From Verrucomicrobiota bacterium (GTDB lineage Bacteria > Verrucomicrobiota > Verrucomicrobiia > Limisphaerales > AAA164-E04): a DNA stretch of 64,000 nt. Below the pieces are notes generated by a model that did no database searches, had not been told where the DNA came from, and worked only from the letters and a program-made list of their open reading frames with translations. Shown in pieces: positions 49,502 through 62,720 of this stretch (position 1 is the stretch's first letter; each line of letters begins with the position of its first letter). A program made the translations under genes and the position numbers. Location of the stretch: positions 3,200,001-3,264,000 of the forward strand of contig CP170459.1 in assembly GCA_047947115.1 (NCBI GenBank). Direction: 5' to 3'.

Positions 49502-50417
49502 ATGCAGTCCTTTAAATTCATTTGTCCAGATTGCGGCGCACACATCGAGGATGAGCCTTCTTCAGTCGGATGCCTGATTGAATGTCCCCAATGCTCGGAA
49601 GAACTCGTAGTTCCTGCCTATAATCCATCAGCCATGTCCATGCCGATTGCCAAACATTCCAGGCATTTTCCGGCACATGCGCGTCATGAAGAACAGGCAA
49701 ATGCGGATACGCGCCAGGCCCCCCCCCTCAAAACATGAGAAGGCGGTTTCCTCAACATCCTTGAACTACGTAGAGCAGGATGTACCTGCTGTTCCCGACC
49801 ATGAAGGGAAAGTGGCTCATGTGGGTGTGCTGACTCCAGCTGTAAAGTTGGATGTGGTCAGGTGGGCTTTTCGAAGAATTGAAAATTCTGCGGTATGGTT
49901 GCCTCATGAACGCAATGGGCATCATTACATTTATGCTCAACGCAGGAATGCGAACGGATATGAACCGGTGAGTTACGATCACCCCGAAGCGCGGAGGTAT
50001 TCATTGTTGGGCGCCGTCTTGCTGGAGCTGAAGATACAACATGCTTCCGTTACAGCTGAAGGTCGTGAGGCGTTTCTGGATCACGAAATTGTGGCTGCTG
50101 CCGAGAAGGTGCTGGCAGAGGTGTCCGAGAAGGTCGGAGAAGGTGAAGACCCTTTGTCGAAACTGGATCACGCCCAAACCTTGTCCGCATTACGCTTGTT
50201 GGAAAGTAAATACCTGGCTGATTGCGAACATTTGGATGATTTGGTAGAATCTGCACGGATTCCCGGAGTGACCATGACGGAGCTGATCCGGCGGGCGGAA
50301 AAAGGTGGACTGGTCACCAGTAACGAAGTGCTCAGTGTGCTCTACCATGAAGTGCATCTTTTAAATCGACGCGTGGAAGAACTGGAAGATGTCATCAAGA
50401 CTCGGTCGCTCCAATGA
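49502..50417 (+). pseudogene. zinc-ribbon-containing protein frameshifted at a C9 homopolymer
   Basis: ORF1 (CPDC..CPQC) stops at 49738; ORF2 continues in the +1 frame; C9 at 49719-49727, and C8 would give one 304-aa ORF. Confidence 0.7.
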
Positions 50418-50476: not shown

Positions 50477-51976
50477 TCAGGATGCAAACGCCTCCATGAA
50501 TCTGGCCAGCAGAGTTCCGGGAAACACTCCCAGCAGTATGGTGATGAGTGCCGTGGTAATGATCAGACTGATCTGGTAGCCATTGGCTTCAATGGTTCCG
50601 GTTTGGGTGGCGTCTTTGCAGAACGCTGCCTTCAACATGCCCAGATAGTAATACAGTGAGACGGCACTGGCTCCCAATGCCAAGGCAACCAGCAGAATTA
50701 AACCGAGCGGATTTCCCGAGGTTTTCAGCGCCGAGATAAACAAATTGAATTTTCCCAGGAACCCGATCAATGGGGGAATGCCGGCCATGGACAGAACCAA
50801 CAGCATGAAACAAGCCGCCAACCAGGGAGATCGATGGCGCAAACCTTCCAGTGCCCGCCAATCGGATGCCTGCCCATTCTGGCTCAGTACGTGCAACAAT
50901 CCGAACACGCCAATAATCGAAACCCCGTAGGTGATCATGTAAAACGCCGCCGAAGCGGGACCGCTTGATGATGGTGACAGGATGCCCAGCAAGGCGTAAC
51001 CCGAATGAGCCACGGCGGAATAGGCCAACAACCTTCTGATGTTGGATTGTTTCAGCGCTGCGAGATTGCCGATGATCATCGACAAACAGGCCGGTAATCC
51101 AAGGACGACCATCCATCCGGCACTCCAATGCCATCCATGGATCGAGCCTTCAAATCCACCAAATCCGCCCCATAAGAATCGGCCAAGCACGAAAAAACCA
51201 GCCACTTTGGAAGCGGAGGCGATCAAACTGGCAACTGGCGTGGGGGCCACCTGATACACATCGGGCGCCCACATGTGGAAAGGCGCGGCGGCAATCTTGA
51301 ATCCAAAACCAATCAAGGACATGACAAGCCCCATGGCCAACAGGGGATCCGTTGGCTTGCCGGTCAAGGCCACTTGAATGTCGGACAGACTGAGATATCC
51401 GGTCATTCCATAGATCAAGCTGAATCCATACAGCACAAAGGCGGCCGAGACGCCTCCGATCAAAAAGTATTTGAGAGCCGTTTGAGTGGCCACAGGTTTT
51501 GATTTTTCAAAACCTGTCAGGATATACAGAGAAAGCGCCGTCAACTCCAGGGCCACAAAAATCATCAGCAGATGATCGGCTCCCACCAGCAAGAACATGC
51601 CTACCATGGCAAGCAGCAGCAAGGCATGGAATTCGCCCTGATGTGGGAAGGGGCGTTGATTGCCCATGTGCAGCCAGATGGAAGCAGCCCCAAGCGCTGC
51701 GATACCGAGTTTGACCATACGGCAGGCGTCATTGGTATAAAAAAGACCTCCCAGCATGTCGCCCGCAGGTTGGTTGAACAGAAGCACTCCACTGGCAAGG
51801 CCAAGGCCCAGTATGGACAACCAACTCAAAGTCCTGCTTAAGCGCAATGCTTCCATACGTCCGTTGAAAGCAAACGAAACGGCCAGTGCGACCAGCGCTG
51901 TGACCACCAGAATACATTCCGGCGCCGTGAGCTTCAGGATGTCTCCGTGGGTGGCTGCTTGTATCAACTGGTTCAT
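50477..51976 (-). CDS. nuoN: complex I subunit N
   Basis: FVALEL, KYFLIG, GFKIAAAPFHMWAPDVY, ASKVAG, RLLAYS..AHSGY, AGIPP..GF.GKF, YYY; start 51976 (MNQL). Confidence 0.95.
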   Translation of the reverse strand: MNQLIQAATHGDILKLTAPECILVVTALVALAVSFAFNGRMEALRLSRTLSWLSILGLGLASGVLLFNQPAGDMLGGLFYTNDACRMVKLGIAALGAASIWLHMGNQRPFPHQGEFHALLLLAMVGMFLLVGADHLLMIFVALELTALSLYILTGFEKSKPVATQTALKYFLIGGVSAAFVLYGFSLIYGMTGYLSLSDIQVALTGKPTDPLLAMGLVMSLIGFGFKIAAAPFHMWAPDVYQVAPTPVASLIASASKVAGFFVLGRFLWGGFGGFEGSIHGWHWSAGWMVVLGLPACLSMIIGNLAALKQSNIRRLLAYSAVAHSGYALLGILSPSSSGPASAAFYMITYGVSIIGVFGLLHVLSQNGQASDWRALEGLRHRSPWLAACFMLLVLSMAGIPPLIGFLGKFNLFISALKTSGNPLGLILLVALALGASAVSLYYYLGMLKAAFCKDATQTGTIEANGYQISLIITTALITILLGVFPGTLLARFMEAFAS

Positions 51977-51995
51977 ATTTCTATCGCTGAAATGA

Positions 51996-53492
51996 TCATT
52001 GTGTTCCCGCAACACTGCCGATGAGAGGTTCCAGCAATGGTGAATGAAGACTGGGAACAACCAGATCGAGAATGAGTCTTGGGTAAATGCCAATGATCAA
52101 ACTCGTTCCAATTAAAAGGACGGATCCAATTTTTTCCTGTGCGGTGATGGCCGGAAGAGGTTCATGCCTCAGGGGGGGACATCCTTGATTGGACGGCCAG
52201 AACACCGTCAACAACGCCCGCAAGGAATAAGCAACACCGATGACAATTCCGATGCCTGCCATGATGGCTGTGTAGGAAAAACTGCTCCAAGCTCCCGTGA
52301 TAACATGCAGTTCCGCGACAAATCCGCTAAAGCCCGGCAATCCCACCGATGCCAGCGCTGCGATCAGAAACACCGTTGCAGCAAAGGGAAGCTTTCTGCC
52401 AAGATCCATTCCATCCAGCTGACTCAGTTCACGCGTATGGGTTCGTGCGTAAACCATGCGGCCTACCACCGCAAACAGCAGCCCTGCCAGAATGCCATGT
52501 GAAAACATCTGCAACACGGCACCGCTCAGACCCGTCTCTGTAGTCGCCAGCAGACCCAGCAGAACAAAGCCCATATGACTGACACTGGAATACCCAATGA
52601 TGAACTTGAAATCACTTTGTACCAGCGCGACAAGGGCTCCAGCGACAATGCTGATAGCGGCCAGCAAGGCCAATTCTTCACGCCACATTGTGGCTCCCAT
52701 TGGAAACAAGGTCATGGGAACACGTAAAGCCCCGTATGCTCCGAGCTTCATCACAACCCCCGCCAGTAACATGGAAGCGCCCGTCGGTGCGGCGACATGA
52801 CCCGTCGGAGCCCAGGTGTGAAACGGCCACATACCTGCCAGAATGACAAACCCGATAAAAGTCACTGGAAAGGCCCACCGTTGAAACTCGGGTGTGTAGG
52901 GGTGCTGGATCAATTGCTGCAGTTCGAAGGAATGTGCTCCCGATACCACGAATGCGGCCATGATCCCGATCAGCGCCAGCGCACTGCCGATAAAACTGTA
53001 GAGCACGATCTTCATTGCTCCATACGATTTTCGGGTGGAACCCCAGATGGCAATCAGAAAGTATTTGGGGATGATTGCGATTTCATAGAAAACAAAGAGC
53101 AGAAACAGGTCAAAGCTGATGAATACTCCGTAAACGCCGCCTATCAAAGTCAGGAAGAAGCCGAAAAATTCGTTGGCACGGTCTTCGATGTTCCACGAGA
53201 AGAGCACGGCAGCCACTGAAGCGATTCCCGTTAGGACTACCATTACCACACTGATGCCATCGGCTGCCAGGTAGTATTGGATGCCCAAAGAGGGGATCCA
53301 TGAAGCCTTCACCGTATCGACGATGGGGTTGCCATCCACCGGGGCGTACAAAATGGCGCAAATCAAACCCACCACCGCAGCCGCGATCGTGCCGGCCAAT
53401 GCCAGGCGGCGACTGAGATCGGGCCTTTCCTTGGGAACAAGGAAACATCCCAGAGCACTCAAAAAGGAAATGTAAACAGTCCAGGCCAACAT
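51996..53492 (-). CDS. nuoM: complex I subunit M, second copy (atypical)
   Basis: WIPSLGIQY..DGIS, FVFYE, PFHTWAP, MKLGAYG, YSSVSHMG, QMFSHG, GLPGFSGFVAE. Confidence 0.92.
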   Translation of the reverse strand: MLAWTVYISFLSALGCFLVPKERPDLSRRLALAGTIAAAVVGLICAILYAPVDGNPIVDTVKASWIPSLGIQYYLAADGISVVMVVLTGIASVAAVLFSWNIEDRANEFFGFFLTLIGGVYGVFISFDLFLLFVFYEIAIIPKYFLIAIWGSTRKSYGAMKIVLYSFIGSALALIGIMAAFVVSGAHSFELQQLIQHPYTPEFQRWAFPVTFIGFVILAGMWPFHTWAPTGHVAAPTGASMLLAGVVMKLGAYGALRVPMTLFPMGATMWREELALLAAISIVAGALVALVQSDFKFIIGYSSVSHMGFVLLGLLATTETGLSGAVLQMFSHGILAGLLFAVVGRMVYARTHTRELSQLDGMDLGRKLPFAATVFLIAALASVGLPGFSGFVAELHVITGAWSSFSYTAIMAGIGIVIGVAYSLRALLTVFWPSNQGCPPLRHEPLPAITAQEKIGSVLLIGTSLIIGIYPRLILDLVVPSLHSPLLEPLIGSVAGTQ

Positions 53493-53494
53493 AT

Positions 53495-55051
53495 CTAAAA
53501 CCGCATTGCGCTGATGAGTTCGTTAATAACAGGATTCAATCCGTCGAGAATGAAGTGAGGGAAGAACCCCAGCACCACCATCAAGATGACAAAGGGTGCC
53601 ACCAGGATGGCGTCCAGCAGGGACAAATCGTGAAATCCTTTTGCCGATTGACCTGCCGGACCGTGAAATAATTTTTGAAGCAACCCGAGCAGAAAAACTG
53701 CTGTGATCAACAGAGCCGGAATGGCAAGAACCGCCGCCCAGGGAACCAGTCCAAACACACCCTTGAAGATCAGGAATTCTCCAATGAAACCGTTCAAGCC
53801 TGGCAACCCGACCGATGCGAAAACGGCCAGCCCCATCGTTCCGGCCAGCAGAGGTGCCACATGACGCAACCCTCCATGTTCATCGATCATGACTTTGCCT
53901 CCTGTTCTCACTTCCAGGATGCTGGCAAAATAGAACAACACCGAGGCAATGATTCCGTGTGCAAACATTTGAAGCATGACCCCCCCCAGCGCGGACGTTT
54001 TTTGGATGGCCAGTTTCATTTCACCATTCGTGGCGAGTCCCAGGACCAGCAATCCCAAGAGGCAATAACCCAGATGGTTGATGGAGGAGTAGGCGAGCAT
54101 ACGCTTGAGGTTGCGTTGTCCCATGGCCGCAAACGCAGAATAAACAATACCGAAAACGGTGATGACGAGCAGCGGCGTCAGTAGTTTGCCGAGAGCGTAG
54201 GGGAACATGGGGATCCCCATCCGGATGAGGCCGTAAAGGCCCATTTTGGACATCAGACCGGTCAGGATCATGGTGACCGGTGTCGGCGCATGGTCATAGG
54301 TGTCCGGCAACCAGGCGTGAAATGGGATCATGGGCACCTTGATTGCAAGGCCGAAAAAAATCAGAGCAAAAATGATCGCAGTGAGCCACCCGAGATGCAT
54401 GTCATACCATCCCAGATTGGAACCAATGACGGAGAGCAGTGAGCCATTGGCGGAAAGCTCCGCAATGTCGGCAAATTCAAACGTTCCCGCTGCTGCCGCC
54501 AGCGCCAGGAAACCAACCAGCAGTGAGATGCTGCCTACCATTGAATAGAGCAAAAACCTCAAGGAAGACTGATCTTTGCCAGGTGAACCCCACAGGCGAA
54601 CCAGGAAGAAAGCGGGAATCAGACTGATTTCATAGAAAAAGAACCACAAGAAAAAATTGGTCGCTGTAAAAACACCCGCCAGACTCCCTTGGATGATCAA
54701 TAAACATCCGAAATACTTGGGTTCATCGTGATCGATCCTCCACGATGCGGCATAAGCGAAAGGCATGATCAAAGAAGTCAGCAAAACCATCAGGCCACTC
54801 AATCCATCCATGCCCAGCGAATAACGAACACCTAACGTGGGAATCCAATCAAACTGTTCGGAAACCGCCTCTCCCGAACCTGAATAACGGGTCGCTAGCC
54901 ACAGGATGATGCCGATGGCAGAGGTCAACAGGCTGACACCCATCCCAAAATGCCGTGTTTGCTTGTGGCCGGGGCCATTCAGGAACACCAGGCGGATGCC
55001 GGCCAGCAGGGGCATCCATATCATCAAACTGATCCACGGAATCGATGTCAT
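53495..55051 (-). CDS. nuoM: complex I subunit M, first copy
   Basis: WIPTLGVRYSLGMDGLS, FFFYE, AIKVPMIPFHAWLP, SKMGLYG, YSSINHLG, GLPGLNGFIGE; ATGA overlap with nuoL. Confidence 0.93.
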   Translation of the reverse strand: MTSIPWISLMIWMPLLAGIRLVFLNGPGHKQTRHFGMGVSLLTSAIGIILWLATRYSGSGEAVSEQFDWIPTLGVRYSLGMDGLSGLMVLLTSLIMPFAYAASWRIDHDEPKYFGCLLIIQGSLAGVFTATNFFLWFFFYEISLIPAFFLVRLWGSPGKDQSSLRFLLYSMVGSISLLVGFLALAAAAGTFEFADIAELSANGSLLSVIGSNLGWYDMHLGWLTAIIFALIFFGLAIKVPMIPFHAWLPDTYDHAPTPVTMILTGLMSKMGLYGLIRMGIPMFPYALGKLLTPLLVITVFGIVYSAFAAMGQRNLKRMLAYSSINHLGYCLLGLLVLGLATNGEMKLAIQKTSALGGVMLQMFAHGIIASVLFYFASILEVRTGGKVMIDEHGGLRHVAPLLAGTMGLAVFASVGLPGLNGFIGEFLIFKGVFGLVPWAAVLAIPALLITAVFLLGLLQKLFHGPAGQSAKGFHDLSLLDAILVAPFVILMVVLGFFPHFILDGLNPVINELISAMRF

Positions 55052-57111
55052 CGTCCACCTCCCCAAATCCAGATGATTGTCAAAACCACAAACCCTAATG
55101 CAACGACCTGCAGGTAAAGTTGAATGCGGCCGGTGTGTGCGTTCGAGACCCGTTCAGCTTGGTTTTGAATACCTTTGCAACCACGATCGAAACCGGCGTT
55201 GATCACCCATTCATCCCAGAAACGGCTGATCCACGAAACGACGCGTGTGCCCAAAGCAACCACTTGCATCATGGGAATCATGAAGTGACGTTCAAACCAT
55301 GCGGCTCCATTGGCGAGCAAACGCGCGCCCTCAATGACTGTTGATTCATAAAATTCGTCCAGATAAAACTTAGCTCGCAAGGTGCTGAACCAACCTGAAG
55401 GTAGTTTTTCGTCCAATGGATCCTGGTCTCGTAGGGGATCAAATACCAGGCTGCTGTAAAACCACCAACCTGTAACCAAACCGCCGATTACCAGAGCGGA
55501 AGAGCCGACCAGTAATCCAAAGGTGGAACCATGGAACAAAGCCGTCCAATGCCAATCGAGGACTCCTCCTTCCAGAAAAGTCCGGAACCATGGGGAAATG
55601 GGAGTGCCCACAAAGCCTGCGACGATCGCCAGCCCCGCCAAGATTCTCAAGGGTATCAGCATGGAAGCCGGGCTTTCATGCGGAATGACAGGATGTTCTC
55701 CAGTGGCATTCTCACGTTGTTGCAACCTGTTTTTGCCGAAAAATACGTGGCACATCTGGCGTGTCATGTAGAACGCGGTCAGAAAAGCACCGGCAAGGGC
55801 CATGAGAAATGGAGCCGGATGACCGTGCCAATGGGCTGCTGCATGCAAGATTTCGTCCTTGCTCCAGAATCCAGAGGTAACCAGCGGAAAACCGGCCAGC
55901 GCCAACATCCCTATACCATACGTGACGAAGGTAACGGGCATGGCTTTTCTCAGTCCGCCCATATAACGGATGTCCTGTTCATCGTGGCAACCGTGAATGA
56001 CTGATCCCGCCCCGAGGAATAAAAGGGCTTTGAAAAACGCGTGAGTGATCAGGTGAAACATGGCCACCGCCACTCCGCCGGTACCCAAGCCCAGCATCAT
56101 GTAACCCAGTTGCGAAATAGTGGAAAAAGCGAGAATGCGTTTCAGATCATTCTGGGCGCATGCAACCAGGGCGCCGATCAAAGCCGTAATGGCTCCAACC
56201 CACGTGATCAAGGACAGTGCCTGCGTTCCCGTGCCGGAATAGGCGAGCAGCGGGTGTACACGAGCCATCAGGAACACCCCGGCGGCTACCATGGTCGCAG
56301 CGTGAATCAAAGCGCTGACCGGCGTGGGACCCTCCATGGCATCCGGCAGCCACACGTGCAGTGGAAATTGACCGGATTTGCCCATGGCACCGAAAAACAA
56401 CAGACAGCCGATGGTTGCGGCGGCGGTCATTCCTGCCATGCCGGGCGCAGAAGCAATCCAGCGAAGTGAGGATGCTTCCAGGCAGCCTTGTCCGGCATCA
56501 TAGAAAAGCAGGGAACCTGCCTCGCCGTAGAGCCAGACCATGCCAATAAAAAGCCCAAGATCCCCAATACGTGTGGTGATGAAGGCCTTCTTGCAGGCGG
56601 CGGCGGCTGATGGCTTTTGAAACCAGAAACCAATCAAAAGATATGAAGCCAGGCCCACCACTTCCCAGCACATGAACAGGATCAGGAGGTGATTGGCAAT
56701 CAGCAGACCGAGCATGGCCCCGGCAAACAATGACAGGAAGGCGTAAAACCGCACAAATCGCGGGTCTTTTTCCATGTAGCCCATGCTGTAAATAAATACC
56801 AGTAAGGAGACAAAGGTCACCATGACGAGCATGACGACGTTGAGCGGATCCAGAATCCAGCCGATACGCATGGAGGTGGTTCCCACATCGAACCAGTTGA
56901 AGTTATGCACCAACCTCGTCACCGCCCCTTCTTCCGCTGATCGAGGCACGGCTCCAAATGCGAAAAGGGACATCACAAAACTCAAGGCCATGGCTACGAT
57001 CGCCAGCCAGGAAGCGCCTTGACGCTTGTCAACCGGCCAGAAAGTCAGCGCCAGAGCCGCCAGGATAGGGAGTCCGGGGATCAACCAAATGTAAGAAATC
57101 AAATCGTTCAT
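55048..57111 (-). CDS. nuoL: complex I subunit L
   Basis: WEVVGLASY, RIGD, GKSGQFPLHVWLPDAMEGPTPVSALIHAATMV, HAFFKALLF, GFWSKD. Confidence 0.96.
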   Translation of the reverse strand: MNDLISYIWLIPGLPILAALALTFWPVDKRQGASWLAIVAMALSFVMSLFAFGAVPRSAEEGAVTRLVHNFNWFDVGTTSMRIGWILDPLNVVMLVMVTFVSLLVFIYSMGYMEKDPRFVRFYAFLSLFAGAMLGLLIANHLLILFMCWEVVGLASYLLIGFWFQKPSAAAACKKAFITTRIGDLGLFIGMVWLYGEAGSLLFYDAGQGCLEASSLRWIASAPGMAGMTAAATIGCLLFFGAMGKSGQFPLHVWLPDAMEGPTPVSALIHAATMVAAGVFLMARVHPLLAYSGTGTQALSLITWVGAITALIGALVACAQNDLKRILAFSTISQLGYMMLGLGTGGVAVAMFHLITHAFFKALLFLGAGSVIHGCHDEQDIRYMGGLRKAMPVTFVTYGIGMLALAGFPLVTSGFWSKDEILHAAAHWHGHPAPFLMALAGAFLTAFYMTRQMCHVFFGKNRLQQRENATGEHPVIPHESPASMLIPLRILAGLAIVAGFVGTPISPWFRTFLEGGVLDWHWTALFHGSTFGLLVGSSALVIGGLVTGWWFYSSLVFDPLRDQDPLDEKLPSGWFSTLRAKFYLDEFYESTVIEGARLLANGAAWFERHFMIPMMQVVALGTRVVSWISRFWDEWVINAGFDRGCKGIQNQAERVSNAHTGRIQLYLQVVALGFVVLTIIWIWGGGR

Positions 57112-57419
57112 CCCTTCAGATCCTCCAGTATTTCGGGGTCGGTGTTTCGGTAGTGGCGGAAAATTGAAATCACCAGGGCCAAACCAACCGCCGCTTCGGC
57201 TGCTGCAATGGCAATGGCAAACAAGACCATGACCAGTCCCGACATGTCATCCGCACTCGGGTGGAAACGCCAGAAGGCGACAAAATTGATGTTGGCGGCA
57301 TTTAACATCAGTTCCACACCAGCCAGAATCAGGATCGCATTACGACGCAGCATGACACCCGTCAAACCGACGCAGAACAATCCGGCGCTGAAAAGGAGAT
57401 AGGGAGTCAGGGTATCCAT
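57108..57419 (-). CDS. nuoK: complex I subunit K
   Basis: RRNAI..GVELMLNAANIN, AAAEAAVGLA. Confidence 0.95.
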   Translation of the reverse strand: MDTLTPYLLFSAGLFCVGLTGVMLRRNAILILAGVELMLNAANINFVAFWRFHPSADDMSGLVMVLFAIAIAAAEAAVGLALVISIFRHYRNTDPEILEDLKG

Positions 57420-57420
57420 G

Positions 57421-57969
57421 TTAATGGGTTGGATCTCCTTTGGTTTGCGGTTTTGCCCCCGGTACTGCAGATACTTCTCTGCGTTCAGGCATCGCCAGTA
57501 ACGCGGCTCCGATCAATGCAACAGTCAGCAGGATTGCGAGCGCTTCGAGGGGAAGCACGTACTCGTTCAGCAGGGATTCGCCGATAGTTTTCACGCTTTC
57601 GGTTTTTGATTCTGGCGCGGCGGTTTGTGCCGGTGAAGATTTGACAATGCCGGCCACCATCACGGCAAATGTGAGCAGTCCGGTAACCCATCCCAATAAC
57701 GAGTTCATTGGGTTCCAGTTGCGCAGGTTCAATTCGTTGCCTCCCCGGGTCATCAATAACGCGAAAATCACCAGCACGGATACAGCGCCAATATAAACCA
57801 TAACCTGTGAGAACCCGACAAATTGGGCGCTGAGTTGCAGGTAGGTCATGGCAATTCCTGCGAAGGTCACAGTGAGGCAGAGCACGCAATGAACCAGATT
57901 ACGCAGACACATCGCCGCGATGGCGGATCCCAGCGTGATCAATGCGATGATGGCAAAGACGAGGTTCAT
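57421..57969 (-). CDS. nuoJ: complex I subunit J
   Basis: RNLVH, L.AQFVG..QVMVYIGAVSVL, YVLPLE..LLTVALIGA. Confidence 0.93.
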   Translation of the reverse strand: MNLVFAIIALITLGSAIAAMCLRNLVHCVLCLTVTFAGIAMTYLQLSAQFVGFSQVMVYIGAVSVLVIFALLMTRGGNELNLRNWNPMNSLLGWVTGLLTFAVMVAGIVKSSPAQTAAPESKTESVKTIGESLLNEYVLPLEALAILLTVALIGAALLAMPERREVSAVPGAKPQTKGDPTH

Positions 57970-59144
57970 ACAGTTGCTTTGGTTTCTTCGGCGTAGCGGT
58001 ACACCCTGGGTTTAATTCTGGAATTCCGGCTGAGCAGTCTGCTCCATCCAAAGTAGCCGCCGGTGTTCATCACAGTCCCGACAATCCAGGCGAATACACC
58101 TCCTCCGAGACTGATCCAAACCCCTGTGGTGATCAGATTCATCACGGACATGGGCAGCATGAACTTCCATGCGAACTCCATGAGCTGATCCGCCCGGAGG
58201 CGGGGCATCGTGCCTCGGATCCAGATAAAGAGCAAGACAAGCAGGATTAATTTTGCAAATAACCAGAAAGGACCGGGAATGAAATCCAAAATAGGAAGCG
58301 GCGCGTGGAACCCACCTAAAAACAAAGTGGCCGTCAGGGCACACATGGCAAACATTGCCACAAATTCAGCTAGAAAAAAGATGGCGTACTTGAAACCGGA
58401 ATACTCGGTCATGTGACCCGCAATCAATTCCGATTCCGCTTCGGGAATGTCGAAAGGGGATCGGTTAACCTCTGCCAGAGTGGAAATCAGAAACAGGATG
58501 CAACCCAGAAAACCCCATGGAGTCCAGATGAACCATGCTTGGATTCCGCCTTCCTGCGCTTGTACAATTTCCGGGAGGGAAAGTGTTCCGGCGGCCATCA
58601 ACACGGCGACGCTGGAAAGTATCAGCGGGATTTCATAGCTGATCATCTGTGCGATGGCTCTTAATGCTCCCAGCAAGGCGTATTTGTTGCGACTGGCCCA
58701 ACCAGCCATGAACACCGCCAGTTCGGCCGCCCCTCCGATGGCAAAGAAAAAGAGAATGCCCGCCTCGAATTCCACCGCCACCAATTTGTGACCAAAAGGA
58801 ATGACCGCCAGTCCGAGCATGGCTGTCACCAGCAGGAACAGGGGAGCGAGCAGATGCAAAAATTGATCGGCACTGAATGGGATGATATCCTCCTTGGTGA
58901 GCATCTTGACCCCGTCCGCGATGGGCTGAAAGATACCGCCGGGACCAACACGGTTTGGACCGAAACGATTCTGAATGCGCCCCAGCATCTTACGTTCCAC
59001 CAGTGTTGCAACGGCAAAAAGCCCTCCAAATGCACTTATGATGGGGATGCAGGACAGCATGGCGGAAAGCACCGGACGCAGATTCTCCGGAGCGATCATG
59101 ACGATCTGCTGTTTCAGTGCAATGAGGAGATCTTCAAACCACAT
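57966..59144 (-). CDS. nuoH: complex I subunit H
   Basis: ERKMLGRIQNRFGPNRVGP, QPIADGVK..KED, SYEIP, AEVNRSPFDIPEAESEL, TEYSG, PRLRADQ. Confidence 0.97.
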   Translation of the reverse strand: MWFEDLLIALKQQIVMIAPENLRPVLSAMLSCIPIISAFGGLFAVATLVERKMLGRIQNRFGPNRVGPGGIFQPIADGVKMLTKEDIIPFSADQFLHLLAPLFLLVTAMLGLAVIPFGHKLVAVEFEAGILFFFAIGGAAELAVFMAGWASRNKYALLGALRAIAQMISYEIPLILSSVAVLMAAGTLSLPEIVQAQEGGIQAWFIWTPWGFLGCILFLISTLAEVNRSPFDIPEAESELIAGHMTEYSGFKYAIFFLAEFVAMFAMCALTATLFLGGFHAPLPILDFIPGPFWLFAKLILLVLLFIWIRGTMPRLRADQLMEFAWKFMLPMSVMNLITTGVWISLGGGVFAWIVGTVMNTGGYFGWSRLLSRNSRIKPRVYRYAEETKATV

Positions 59145-59149
59145 AACGG

Positions 59150-59788
59150 CTATTTGGCTAACATCTGCTGTTCTTCTTTGTCTGCCTGATCCGCAGCCGC
59201 TTTTTCAGCGGCGGCTTGTTTCGCCTGAGCGGCTTTTTCAGCTTTGGCGCGTTCCTTGGCCAAGTGATCCTGACGTTTTTGTTCCCGAACGGCATCCGTT
59301 TCAGTGGCTTCAGTGGGATGGATGTCGTGGTAGTAGGAGTCGGATTTGGCCAGGTCTTCCTTGTGCAATATCAGGCGGCTGAAACGGTTTTCACCGGCGT
59401 ATTCGAATTCCCGGTCCATGCGGATGGATTCAAAGGGGCAAACTTCCACACAGATCTGGCACCCCATGCAAACCGAGATGTCGATGTCGAACACCTTGGG
59501 CTTGAATTGGGCCTTCCCAAGGAAATCAGGTTTCTTCTCGGTGTCTTTTTCGATGTAGATGCACTGCGGGGGGCATTCCTTTTCGCAAATCTGGCACGCG
59601 ACACAGCGCAGACCGGATTCCCAGTCTTCTCCGTCAAAGATCAGCATCGGAAAATTGCGGGCCGATTCCTTGGCGGGAATCTTTTGTTCGGGATACTCCA
59701 CTGTGACCATTCGCTCCGGATCATGAAAACTACCCACCATGTTGCGGGCTGTTTCCACCATTCCTTTGAGTATGCCTTTGCCAATCAT
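59150..59788 (-). CDS. nuoI: complex I subunit I (2x[4Fe-4S])
   Basis: TVEYPE, CVACQICEKECP, CMGCQICVEVCP; start 59788 (MIGKG); Ala/Lys/Glu-rich tail. Confidence 0.93.
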   Translation of the reverse strand: MIGKGILKGMVETARNMVGSFHDPERMVTVEYPEQKIPAKESARNFPMLIFDGEDWESGLRCVACQICEKECPPQCIYIEKDTEKKPDFLGKAQFKPKVFDIDISVCMGCQICVEVCPFESIRMDREFEYAGENRFSRLILHKEDLAKSDSYYHDIHPTEATETDAVREQKRQDHLAKERAKAEKAAQAKQAAAEKAAADQADKEEQQMLAK

Positions 59789-59810
59789 ATTTCTTTCAAC
59801 TCTCCTTTTC

Positions 59811-60992
59811 TTATCGGTCGACTTCTCCCAATACAATATCCACACTGCCCAAAATAATCACCGAATCCGCAATCGTGTGCCCAAGACACATGTCCTCCAG
59901 AATCGTCAGATTGATCAAGCTGGGAGGACGCACCCTGAAACGATAGGGTTGCGGTGATTTGTCGCTGATCAGATAAAAACCAAGCTCTCCCTTGGGCGCT
60001 TCAATACGTCCGTAAGCTTCTCCGGCAGGAGGTCTCAATCCGCGTGACTTGGCCTTGGGGTGAACGAAATTACCCTCCGGAATATCTCTGAGGGCTTGTC
60101 GCAAGATTTTGACAGACTCACGCATTTCCAGAATGCGCATCATGTAACGGTCATAGGTGTCACCATGATCACCCAACGGGACCCTGAAGTCGAAACGATC
60201 ATAGATGCCGTAACCATCCACTTTTCGAATGTCATAATTCACCCCTGATGCTCTCAGGATCGGCCCCGTCACCCCCGCATCAATGGCCAGGTCCTTCGGA
60301 AGAACGCCCACTTCCTGTGAACGGGACATCAATACTTCATTTTCCGAAAGGAGCGCTTCGAATTCATCAAGAAACTTCGGGAACGCTTCGACGACTTGAT
60401 GGGCTTGTTCGATCCAACCCTGTGGAAAATCGCATCGACACCCTCCAAAACGCATGTAGTTGCACATCATGCGCGCTCCACTCAATGATTCGAAGAGGTC
60501 CAGGATGCGCTCGCGCTCGCGAAAAGCATACATCAACGGAGTGCCAAGCGCCCCCATGTCCTGAACCAGAAATCCGATCAGGCAAACATGATTCTGCAAA
60601 CGGCTGAGTTCTGCCGTGATCACCCGCATGTATTCGGCTCTCTCGGGAACTTCGATGCCCGCCAATGTCTCAACACTCAAGGCATAAGCCCAGTTGTTGG
60701 TCATGGAATTGAAATAATCCAGGCGGTCGGTGTAGGGCATGGAGCCCAGATAGGAGGTGCCTTCGGCAATCTTCTCGTGATTGCGGTGCAGGTAACCAAA
60801 GACCGGTTTGAGTTTGGTGATCGTTTCACCGTCCAGTTCCACATCCATACGAAACACACCGTGAGTGGATGGATGATGCGGTCCCATTGACACTTCCATA
60901 CGTTCCGTACCTTCGGGACTGTGCTCGCTGGAGGCAGTCAGTTCATATTGAGGGCCTGTCCCCATCATGGGATCATTCAACATCTCACTCAC
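59811..60992 (-). CDS. nuoD: complex I subunit D
   Basis: [37 protein letters not shown]; no Ni-binding CxxC. Confidence 0.96.
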
Positions 60993-61618
60993 TGGTCGCC
61001 TCCTTTTGCCGGTGGATTCTGATGTGCGGCTGACTTTTTCAGCACATCCGCATGGGGCGTGGGTTCGTACTCATAATCGTCCGGTTCCACATAGTCTTTC
61101 CGCATGGGATGTCCTTTGAAGGAGTCCCACATCATAAGGCGTCGCAAATCCGGATGTCCTTTAAAGTGAATGCCATACAGATCGAAAATTTCCCTTTCCT
61201 GCAGTTCGGCGCTTCGCCAGACCGGTGTCATGGAGGGGAGGGAAACATCGTCACTTCGATTCCCCGTGCGGGTGCGGAAAACCAATGGGCCAACCGGGGC
61301 TTCCATGGAATAAAGGTGGTAAACAGATTCCAGAAAACCCCTGGTTTCCTCGGGTTCCGCGTCCTTGCCGAACTTTACCTTCAGGGCATCCTCGGTCCAG
61401 TCGATCCCGGTGACATTGGACAGATAATCCAGCTTCCATGGAGACTCCTGCTTCAGCCATCGGGCACAAGCCACTGCGTGCTCGTTTTGAAAGAGCAGGG
61501 AATGCTGTCCTGATGGATTCTCGTTCTCGATAACGAGTACACCTGCGCCGGCGATAGCGTCGTTGATCGCATCCGCGACAGATTGTATTTCCGGTATATT
61601 AACTGACATGTTCTCCAT
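60989..61618 (-). CDS. nuoC: complex I subunit C
   Basis: [42 protein letters not shown]; start uncertain (61609-61648). Confidence 0.93.
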
Positions 61619-61651
61619 ATGGGGACTTGCTGGTAAGCGATGCTCCAAATG

Positions 61652-62260
61652 TCAGCCTCTTATAACGGGTTCAGGGTTCCAGATCTTTGCATTTTTTGGC
61701 GGTTGCAGGTCATGAACGCCACATTCTGGGATGGGAAGATCCGCCATGAGTTCCTCTTCCTCTGCCTTTCGGCGATCCCAGTGAAGACTGTCCCCTGCAA
61801 TTTTTCGCTGGAGGGTCATGATGGCATGCAACAATGCTTCCGGCCGTGGAGGACATCCTGGAATATGGATGTCCACCGGGATAAAACGGTCAATGCCTTT
61901 CAGGACGTTATATCCATGTTTGAACGGGCCGCCGGAAATGGCGCAAGCTCCCATGGCAATAACGTATTTGGGGGATGGCATCTGTTTGTAAAGGCGCACC
62001 ACCTGGGGGGCCATTTTCTTGGTCACTGTTCCAGAGACAATCATGAGATCCGCCTGACGGGGAGATGGCCGGAAGACTTCGGCGCCGAATCGCGCCAAAT
62101 CGTAGCGTGACATGGAGGTGGCGATCATCTCGATGGCACAGCACGCTAATCCGAATTGTAACGGCCACAATGAATTGCGACGTCCCCAATTGTAGATTTC
62201 GCTCAGGGTTGTCGTGAAGATGCCGGCTTTTTGCAGTTCGCTTTTCAGACCTTCGTCCAT
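61652..62260 (-). CDS. nuoB: complex I subunit B
   Basis: [27 protein letters not shown]. Confidence 0.96.
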
Positions 62261-62312
62261 AGATTGTTTGCTCGATTCCTTTTTCCCTCTGCTTGGTTGA
62301 AGGCCCGTTGGA

Positions 62313-62720
62313 TCAACGGCCTTTTTGTATCGGCGTGAACTGCCACTTGAGAAGCCCCTTTGCCCACGCCCAGGCCAACCCTTCCATCAATAAAAAGACA
62401 AAAAGGATCAAGGCTCCAACCGCTCCCCATGGCAGATCCCGATAAACCGATGCAATGGGAAGTAAAAATAAAATCTCCACGTCAAAAACCAGGAAAATGA
62501 TGCCGTACACGTAGTATTCGGCTTTGAGCGGCATCCATTGCGTGTCTCCTGTTTCCAGGCCGCACTCATACACCGCATTTTTTACTTCATCAGGCCGGGC
62601 GGTGCCCACCCAACGCGTCCAGATGCGCGCCAGCAAAACAGGAACCAGACCCATCAACAGTGCTGAAACAGTAAACACACCCAATAACAGATAGGGAGGA
62701 TAGGCAGTGCTGGATTCCAT
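62313..62720 (-). CDS. nuoA: complex I subunit A
   Basis: [22 protein letters not shown]. Confidence 0.94.

Follow-up and report, generated by a model that had tools for sequence, protein, structure and literature searches.

The window, the whole stretch of 64,000 nucleotides analysed here (C1:3200001-3264000), comes from a single-contig genome of 6.08 Mb, and its closest named relatives are Verrucomicrobiota, including MAGs labelled Pedosphaera. A nuo operon runs on its minus strand from 62720 to 50477 in the order nuoA-B-C-D-I-H-J-K-L-M1-M2-N, with no nuoEFG (Table 1), and includes two distinct nuoM genes whose products share 31% identity. This is the arrangement of 2M complex I (Chadwick, Hemp, Fischer & Orphan 2018, ISME J 12:2668; via PMC9040806 and PMC7117926), with two nuoM genes, the order L-M-M-N and a NuoL longer by ~25 residues; it differs in lacking nuoEFG and in placing nuoI before nuoH. 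An insertion of ~26 residues in the NuoL amphipathic helix has been described for 2M complexes (PMC9040806), and between the positions of E. coli L530 and L590 we count 89 residues in 7 of 7 2M NuoLs, as against 64 in six single-M NuoLs and 61 in E. coli. Among 80 GTDB 2M loci, M1 lies directly upstream of M2 in 79 (the remaining contig starts inside M2) and N lies downstream of M2 in 78, the exceptions being contig ends. Rather than a new system, NuoM2 represents a variant within a complex I type already known.

Table 1. Genes of the 2M operon and residues of NuoM2, in window coordinates
Feature	Position	Strand	Remarks
nuoA-B-C-D-I-H-J-K	57108..62720	-	remainder of 2M operon; nuoE/F/G absent between D and I; ORFs and NCBIfam best matches
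nuoL	55048..57111	-	687 aa; ~25 extra residues in amphipathic-helix region; E150, S156, D184, K245, H270, K361, K418 intact
nuoM1	53495..55066	-	canonical TM5 Glu/TM7 Lys pair, TM8 Lys, TM12 Glu
nuoM2	51996..53492	-	498 aa; NuoM without TM7 Lys; TIGR01972 420.6 bits, cut-off 263.8
nuoN	50477..52093	-	ORF; start probably near 51976; E144, K227, K257, K409 intact
Glu137, conserved TM5 glutamate	53082..53084	-	E. coli M-E144
Lys143, new TM5 lysine, Glu+6	53064..53066	-	E. coli M-M150; L-S150
Leu218, at TM7 lysine site	52839..52841	-	E. coli M-K234; P. denitrificans K232
Ala228, at gating-Leu site of Leu-His-Trp triad	52809..52811	-	P. denitrificans Nqo13 L242; 8qby_M alignment; codon counted from gene start
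Leu243, TM8; His here in sister lineages without Lys143	52764..52766	-	E. coli M-L259
Lys249, central TM8 lysine, kept	52746..52748	-	E. coli M-K265
Glu394, terminal TM12 glutamate, kept	52311..52313	-	E. coli M-E407

The genome has a second nuo operon (C1:2.313-2.327 Mb) with one NuoM and with NuoF and NuoG domains. Elsewhere than in these two operons, the genome has three more NuoF-like (Complex1_51K) genes, at C1:4701313, 5999106 and 3461617; they are candidates for feeding electrons into the EFG-less 2M complex, or may belong to formate dehydrogenases or hydrogenases. Convergent with nuoN is a 256-aa ORF (49647-50417, plus strand) that has no NCBIfam match. Contigs assembled from RNA libraries span the 2M operon in 2 of 4 runs (all bins), but they span its flank as well and so give no evidence of transcription. 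One 2M cluster (L152, G048:C1:270000-286000) is split, with nuoABCDI and nuoHJKLM1M2N running divergently from adjacent positions.

When mapped to E. coli, NuoM1, NuoN and NuoL are all canonical at the TM5 Glu, at the TM7 Lys and further along the axis; helix numbers follow PMC9040806, PMC9568556, PMC10212512, PMC13073174, PMC3144371, PMC7117926, PMC9271201, PMC8357420, PMC9802314, PMC10396290, PMC13358369 and PMC3046159. NuoM1 reads FYEISLIPAF and, at TM7, AIKVPMIPFHAWLP, as an earlier sequence-only reading of this DNA had noted. The translation of 51999-53492 (minus strand), NuoM2, instead reads FYEIAIIPKYF (E137, K143) and FVILAGMWPFHTWAP (L218, G220), followed by K249 and E394. Pairwise alignment with E. 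coli NuoM (NC_000913.3) gives the correspondences of Table 1 and sets G220 against P236; phmmer alignments with PDB entries 3rko_M and 8qby_M return the same mapping, with both motifs free of gaps. The same reading had claimed that NuoM2 lacks the TM7 lysine, has Gly in place of the adjoining Pro, has gained a lysine near the TM5 glutamate and keeps the TM8 lysine and TM12 glutamate, and in all of this the alignments bear it out. A lysine displaced by a few residues within TM7 can be ruled out, since positions 212-233 are free of lysine in all 120 closest rows (the query and 119 homologs), and no alignment put a lysine at the canonical TM7 site.

NuoM2 scores above the NuoM cut-off, is predicted to have the NuoM fold, and carries the TM5 Glu (E137), the TM8 Lys (K249) and a Glu, not a Lys, at TM12 (E394). 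It is no MrpD, scoring 144 bits against a cut-off of 692 for TIGR00944 and having nuo genes as neighbours. The canonical charge axis, with a TM7 Lys paired to the TM5 Glu, is absent; because L218 occupies the lysine site in 120 of 120 rows, NuoM2 is a variant and not a canonical NuoM. With canonical NuoM/Nqo13/ND4 (E. coli 3rko, P. denitrificans 8qby) it shares the fold, TM5 Glu, TM8 Lys, the TM10/TM11 His pair (H306, H332), the TM7b His and the TM12 Glu, and it departs from them in TM7 Lys to Leu, Pro236 to Gly, the gating Leu to Ala, Asp246 to Thr and Met150 to Lys. An AF2 model (second run; pLDDT 96.8) places K143 within a continuous helix, 129-150, seven residues before the end of TM5, predicts that helices are broken at 217-226 and 383-388, and matches E. 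coli NuoM (3rko_C) with Z 54.0 and an rmsd of 1.7 Å over 488 residues, consistent with a 14-TM antiporter-like fold with broken TM7 and TM12. An earlier AF2 model, built from close homologs, was poor around TM5-TM8, and among the solved structures matched the nearest is ~35% identical to NuoM2.

K143 together with L218 is found in 120 of the 120 closest rows and at all 80 GTDB loci, whose titles are mostly Verrucomicrobiota or Acidobacteriota; the pairing is therefore neither chance nor a sequencing error, an annotation artefact is likewise ruled out, and the lysine is conserved among orthologs. His232, Lys249, His306, His332 and Glu394 are also kept in all 120 rows. At the same 80 loci every M1 that could be read (77 of 77) has K218. 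When the phylum was sampled evenly, 16 of 301 genomes, the source genome counted, had a NuoM2 ortholog at ≥53% identity. A second K143 group, unrelated to the 2M clade, belongs to Bacteroidota (named members are Sphingobacteriales) and shows K143/F218/L243 in 176 of 176 readable rows out of 185. Several contigs (L005, L010, L012, L014, L016-L018 and L025) carry nuo genes 62-65% identical to this M2 under titles such as Klebsiella, Bifidobacteriaceae and Akkermansia muciniphila, and look like mislabelled MAGs.

The sequence-only reading had treated the oddity as a property of an "extra" module, and this did not hold up: loss of the TM7 Lys predates 2M complexes and extends beyond them, and it is not the mark of a spare subunit, since a NuoM of this kind is the sole NuoM of many complexes. 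Among 150 cluster representatives K143 and K218 never occur together, and many K218-less proteins without K143 have a TM8 His at 243. A profile of these His243 proteins listed 120 proteins, the named ones being Clostridium, Moorella, other Bacillota and Chloroflexota; 119 are M143/L218/H243 and one (P0345), which has a duplicated segment, is K143/L218/L243, a state shared by its relative P0180. A His243 query found 65 metagenome loci; L218/H243 could be read in 60 of them, 47 had the order L-M-N with a single M and none had two M genes. Prevotella nigrescens, Bacteroides finegoldii and Phocaeicola massiliensis have one NuoM each, of the His243 type in all three operons. In the present genome, the NuoM of the main, NuoEFG-containing complex I (C1:2314750-2316318, L154) is T143/L218/H243 with Lys-Lys at 248-249; an enzyme with an NADH module would thus, if active, run on a NuoM without the TM7 lysine. 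This T143/L218/H243/K248-K249 type accounts for 32 of 50 Verrucomicrobiota loci, the others being seven 2M K143, seven canonical, one His247, two with none of the four bases considered below and one unreadable. The His243-type single-M NuoMs (Bacteroides/Prevotella, Clostridium/Moorella, Chloroflexota and the main complex I of Verrucomicrobiia) share with NuoM2 their clade, the loss of the TM7 Lys and a remodelled pocket; they differ in having His243 with Met or Thr at 143 (Verrucomicrobiia add Lys248), where NuoM2 has Lys143 with Leu243. That NuoM2 is a degenerate spare was unsupported; its similarity to the window copy exceeds that of M1 in 75 of 76 loci (median 60.6% vs 44.3%), a comparison of little weight because the loci were chosen via M2. 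As the odd M2 descends from a lineage of sole NuoMs, the canonical-looking M1 may be the subunit that was added in 2M complexes.

The distribution of bases across these proteins is close to exclusive. We aligned 827 NuoMs, taken from the top-match lists of four queries and so not an even census, of which 813 were readable at all key sites (the 14 unreadable ones, and cluster members from P0534 onward, were left out). Exactly one of Lys218, Lys143, His243 and His247 was present in 807 of the 813: 213 had K218, 353 K143, 237 H243 and four H247, six had none, and not one had two. K143 is absent from all 213 rows with K218. Clustering at 70% identity left 186 representatives, 106 canonical and 80 without K218; the latter comprise 17 with K143, 56 with H243, three with H247 and four with none. 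His243 is found in 0 of the 17 with K143 as against 56 of the 63 without it, and the column that best covaries with K143 among the K218-less representatives is 243. The sequence-only reading had called for a test of covariation between the K143 and L218 positions; here the new lysine never accompanies Lys218. Of the six rows with none of the four bases, three have Lys248 and one Glu218. Four such NuoMs are L186 (G176:C63), L187 (G026:C42), P0178 and P0154; L186 and L187 carry Lys248 and Gln249 as well as an additional Glu close to TM5, and in P0154 the TM7 Lys site holds a Glu. A small clade (L153/L150 (G026:C33), P0139 and P0176) has its His at 247 instead of 243, with an Asn preceding the TM5 Glu, and is possibly a fourth solution.

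The history of these exchanges was followed on a 69-row IQ-TREE phylogeny (quick search, LG+C20, trait columns removed, SH-aLRT support from the quick search) that omitted 13 near-redundant His243 metagenome rows and most canonical rows. The loss of K218 is one change (SH-aLRT 99, starred), with 55 rows on one side of the branch, and the clade without the TM7 Lys shares this loss together with changes at 162, 166, 220, 228 and 231. K143 requires four changes, and starred branches force every one: the 2M K143 clade has the His243-bearing P0295 as its sister (97, starred), the Bacteroidota K143 group is sister to the Bacteroidales His243 proteins (98, starred), P0345 is sister to P0366 (99, starred), and the fourth origin is P0167. 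An AU test rejected a single K143 clade (p-AU 4.7e-6), and a FastTree phylogeny of 171 rows recovered the same four groups, with the 2M clade nearer the base. With four pairs the statistics for independence are weak (sign test p 0.125; a rough branch-length estimate gives ~0.013), and three K143 rows on the tree have an odd amino-acid composition. On these sequences K143 appears to have arisen four times, every time without His243. The exchange partner of K143 is thus the TM8 His243, because the four origins lie within the His243-bearing lineage and the loss of K218 came earlier. The simplest reading of the order is Lys (TM7) to His (TM8) to Lys (TM5), although the change counts do not separate gain from loss.

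Loss of the TM7 Lys was accompanied by a remodelled pocket. Comparing the 106 canonical with the 80 K218-less representatives, the canonical residue is found in 104 vs 1 at F162, 101 vs 1 at T166, 104 vs 3 at P220, 103 vs 2 at L228 and 100 vs 12 at A231. Position 228, which corresponds to L242 of P. denitrificans in the 8qby_M alignment, is without Leu in 78 of the 80 and is S, A or V in 76. In P. denitrificans NuoM, either K232Q or L242A is enough to stop catalysis, and none of the variants was uncoupled (PMC9802314), so that plain loss of the TM7 Lys should stall the enzyme; with L218 and A228, NuoM2 is changed at two sites each of which is fatal there.

Where Lys143 points can be judged from paralogues. 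Its aligned counterparts are Ser150 in E. coli NuoL, Ser156 in the NuoL of the window and Ser146 in MrpA. In the 2.2 Å Mrp structure MrpA Ser146 (Glu140+6) hydrogen-bonds His248 in one conformation, and waters W66-W68 link to Glu140/Lys223 (PMC9568556), while in E. coli NuoL His254 forms a hydrogen bond with Ser150 in its orientation towards the Lys-Glu pair (PMC13358369). Position 243 aligns with NuoL His254 or the preceding residue, the register being uncertain by one. Thus, by analogy with NuoL and MrpA, the three exchangeable sites (TM7, TM8 243 and TM5 143) would line one pocket, and K143 is likely to lie in it because the aligned Ser does so in published structures, which is evidence transferred from paralogues. 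The analogy is limited in that TM5 of NuoL and MrpA, unlike that of M2, has no Pro at 142, and Glu+6 would not fall exactly on the helix face of the Glu. The histidine switch of NuoL and MrpA (His254/Ser150/Lys229; His248/Ser146/Lys223) uses the same TM5 Glu+6, TM8 bulge and TM7 positions as the NuoM lineage, but NuoL has the TM7 Lys, the His and the Ser together, where the NuoM lineage has one base replacing the TM7 Lys. In formate hydrogenlyase a His is supplied by a neighbouring helix (PMC13358369, Figure S7 legend). Glu-Lys pairs in mouse complex I are 5-6 Å apart and bridged by water, not tight salt bridges (PMC10396290), and a relocated amine is therefore plausible.

We therefore favour, as probable, the reading that Lys143 is a stand-in base and that M2 functions as a coupled module in a complex I with four antiporter-like subunits. 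M2 would adjoin NuoN, as gene order suggests, and Glu137 would then receive the charge signal from NuoN Lys409 if spatial order follows gene order; Lys143, reaching the same buried pocket, would serve as the proton-binding partner of Glu137 in the role of the TM7 lysine, and the signal would reach the canonical pair of M1 by way of Lys249, His306/His332 and Glu394. The sequence-only reading had proposed a compensatory swap from TM7 to TM5. Its compensatory part is likely, because K143 is invariant, never accompanies the TM7 Lys and occupies a site that lies in the central pocket of NuoL and MrpA; its direct move did not survive the single earlier loss of K218 (SH-aLRT 99) and the four later origins of K143. 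We infer that exactly one titratable base is required per pocket and may be supplied by TM7, TM8 or TM5. More tentatively, and as a claim we would call slightly more apt to fail than to stand, the "invariant" Glu/Lys ion pair of NuoM may be a one-base pocket filled from three helices, to which TM7 has contributed a Lys, TM8 a His and TM5 a Lys, His having given way to Lys independently at least four times, such that gut Bacteroidales, clostridia and most Verrucomicrobiia would run complex I on a NuoM with two substitutions lethal in P. denitrificans.

The strongest alternative, though an unlikely one, is that K143 does sit in the pocket but that M2 is a sideways charge or proton relay, a conduit of the NuoN type that pumps no proton of its own. 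Lack of the gating Leu at 228 would suit such a role, as the window's NuoN also has Ala at the equivalent site, and single-exit models treat the subunits as conduits (PMC10396290). However, the remainder of the axis is intact in all 120 rows, NuoL has the 25-residue extension expected for a fourth module, and the domino model assigns each antiporter-like subunit one pumped proton (PMC10212512). Somewhat less credible still is the view that the remodelled pocket needs no base, with K143 structural (snorkelling, or contacting lipid or another subunit) and the exclusion of His243 steric or historical. E. coli NuoN K217A still pumps, two methods giving 68% and 109% of wild type (PMC13073174), so the site might need no base in a subunit that has been remodelled; the six rows with none of the four bases, the nearness of K143 to the end of TM5 and the non-significant sign test fit this view as well. 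Against it, a lysine at a buried site is invariant in two unrelated lineages, the 2M and Bacteroidota groups, and never occurs beside K218, and the equivalent Ser of NuoL and MrpA faces inward (PMC9568556, PMC13358369).

Very improbable is a one-step swap, a special 2M adaptation in which acquisition of the second NuoM came with a direct transfer of the lysine from TM7 to TM5: the fixed states of M1 and M2 at the 80 2M loci and the near-basal K143 clade of the FastTree phylogeny fit it, but the better model makes that clade sister to His243-bearing P0295, there are three other origins, including that in Bacteroidota, the AU test rejects a single clade, and single-M operons lack the TM7 Lys as well. 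Antiporter-like subunits derive from Mrp Na+/H+ antiporters and the organism's DNA is present in estuary and marine libraries, and the sequence-only reading had raised altered ion specificity; that M2 moves, for example, Na+ is nonetheless just as improbable as the one-step swap, as we found no evidence for it, no new acidic residue is seen, the K143/L218 motif also occurs in soil Acidobacteriaceae (by record titles), the Mrp Na+ site is assigned to MrpA's C-terminal domain and not to this pocket (PMC9568556), and isolated canonical modules conducted no Na+ (PMC13220270).

If Lys143 is a stand-in base, the variants bear on how protons are moved, since all the rival pumping models for complex I depend on the TM5 Glu/TM7 Lys pair, taken either as an opening and closing salt bridge or as a switch for storing protons. 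Strongly conserved natural NuoMs without the TM7 lysine offer natural second-site suppressors and hence a natural test, and they name the suppressors to be made: E. coli NuoM M150K or L259H on K234L, with L244A/S and P236G. Should M150K or L259H rescue K234 mutants, the position of charge, and not a TM5-TM7 salt bridge or movement of TM7, would drive coupling, and any base in the pocket would suffice; failure would suggest that a very large lineage of bacteria uses another mechanism. Neither Met150 nor Leu259 is mentioned in the available part of PMC8357420, and the 2M accounts, in the parts available (PMC9040806, PMC7117926), mention neither the absence of the TM7 Lys nor the new TM5 Lys. A literature search that left most subscription journals outside its reach found nothing on the TM7-Lys-less NuoM lineage or the TM5 lysine; the original 2M paper and its supplements may mention the substitution.

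Other gene arrangements were seen among His243-type loci. In four from the Acidobacteriota phylum (L203-L206; G423, G441, G306 and G461) the NuoM lies in open frames of ~990-1160 aa, which suggests fusion to a neighbouring subunit or long read-through, and L203 has the gene order M-L-N. At L105 a His243-type nuoM heads the operon (M-A-B-C-D-H-I-J-K-L-N). One further NuoM match, at L199 (G070:C3), contains eight in-frame TGA codons, which suggests that TGA is translated as an amino acid in that genome.
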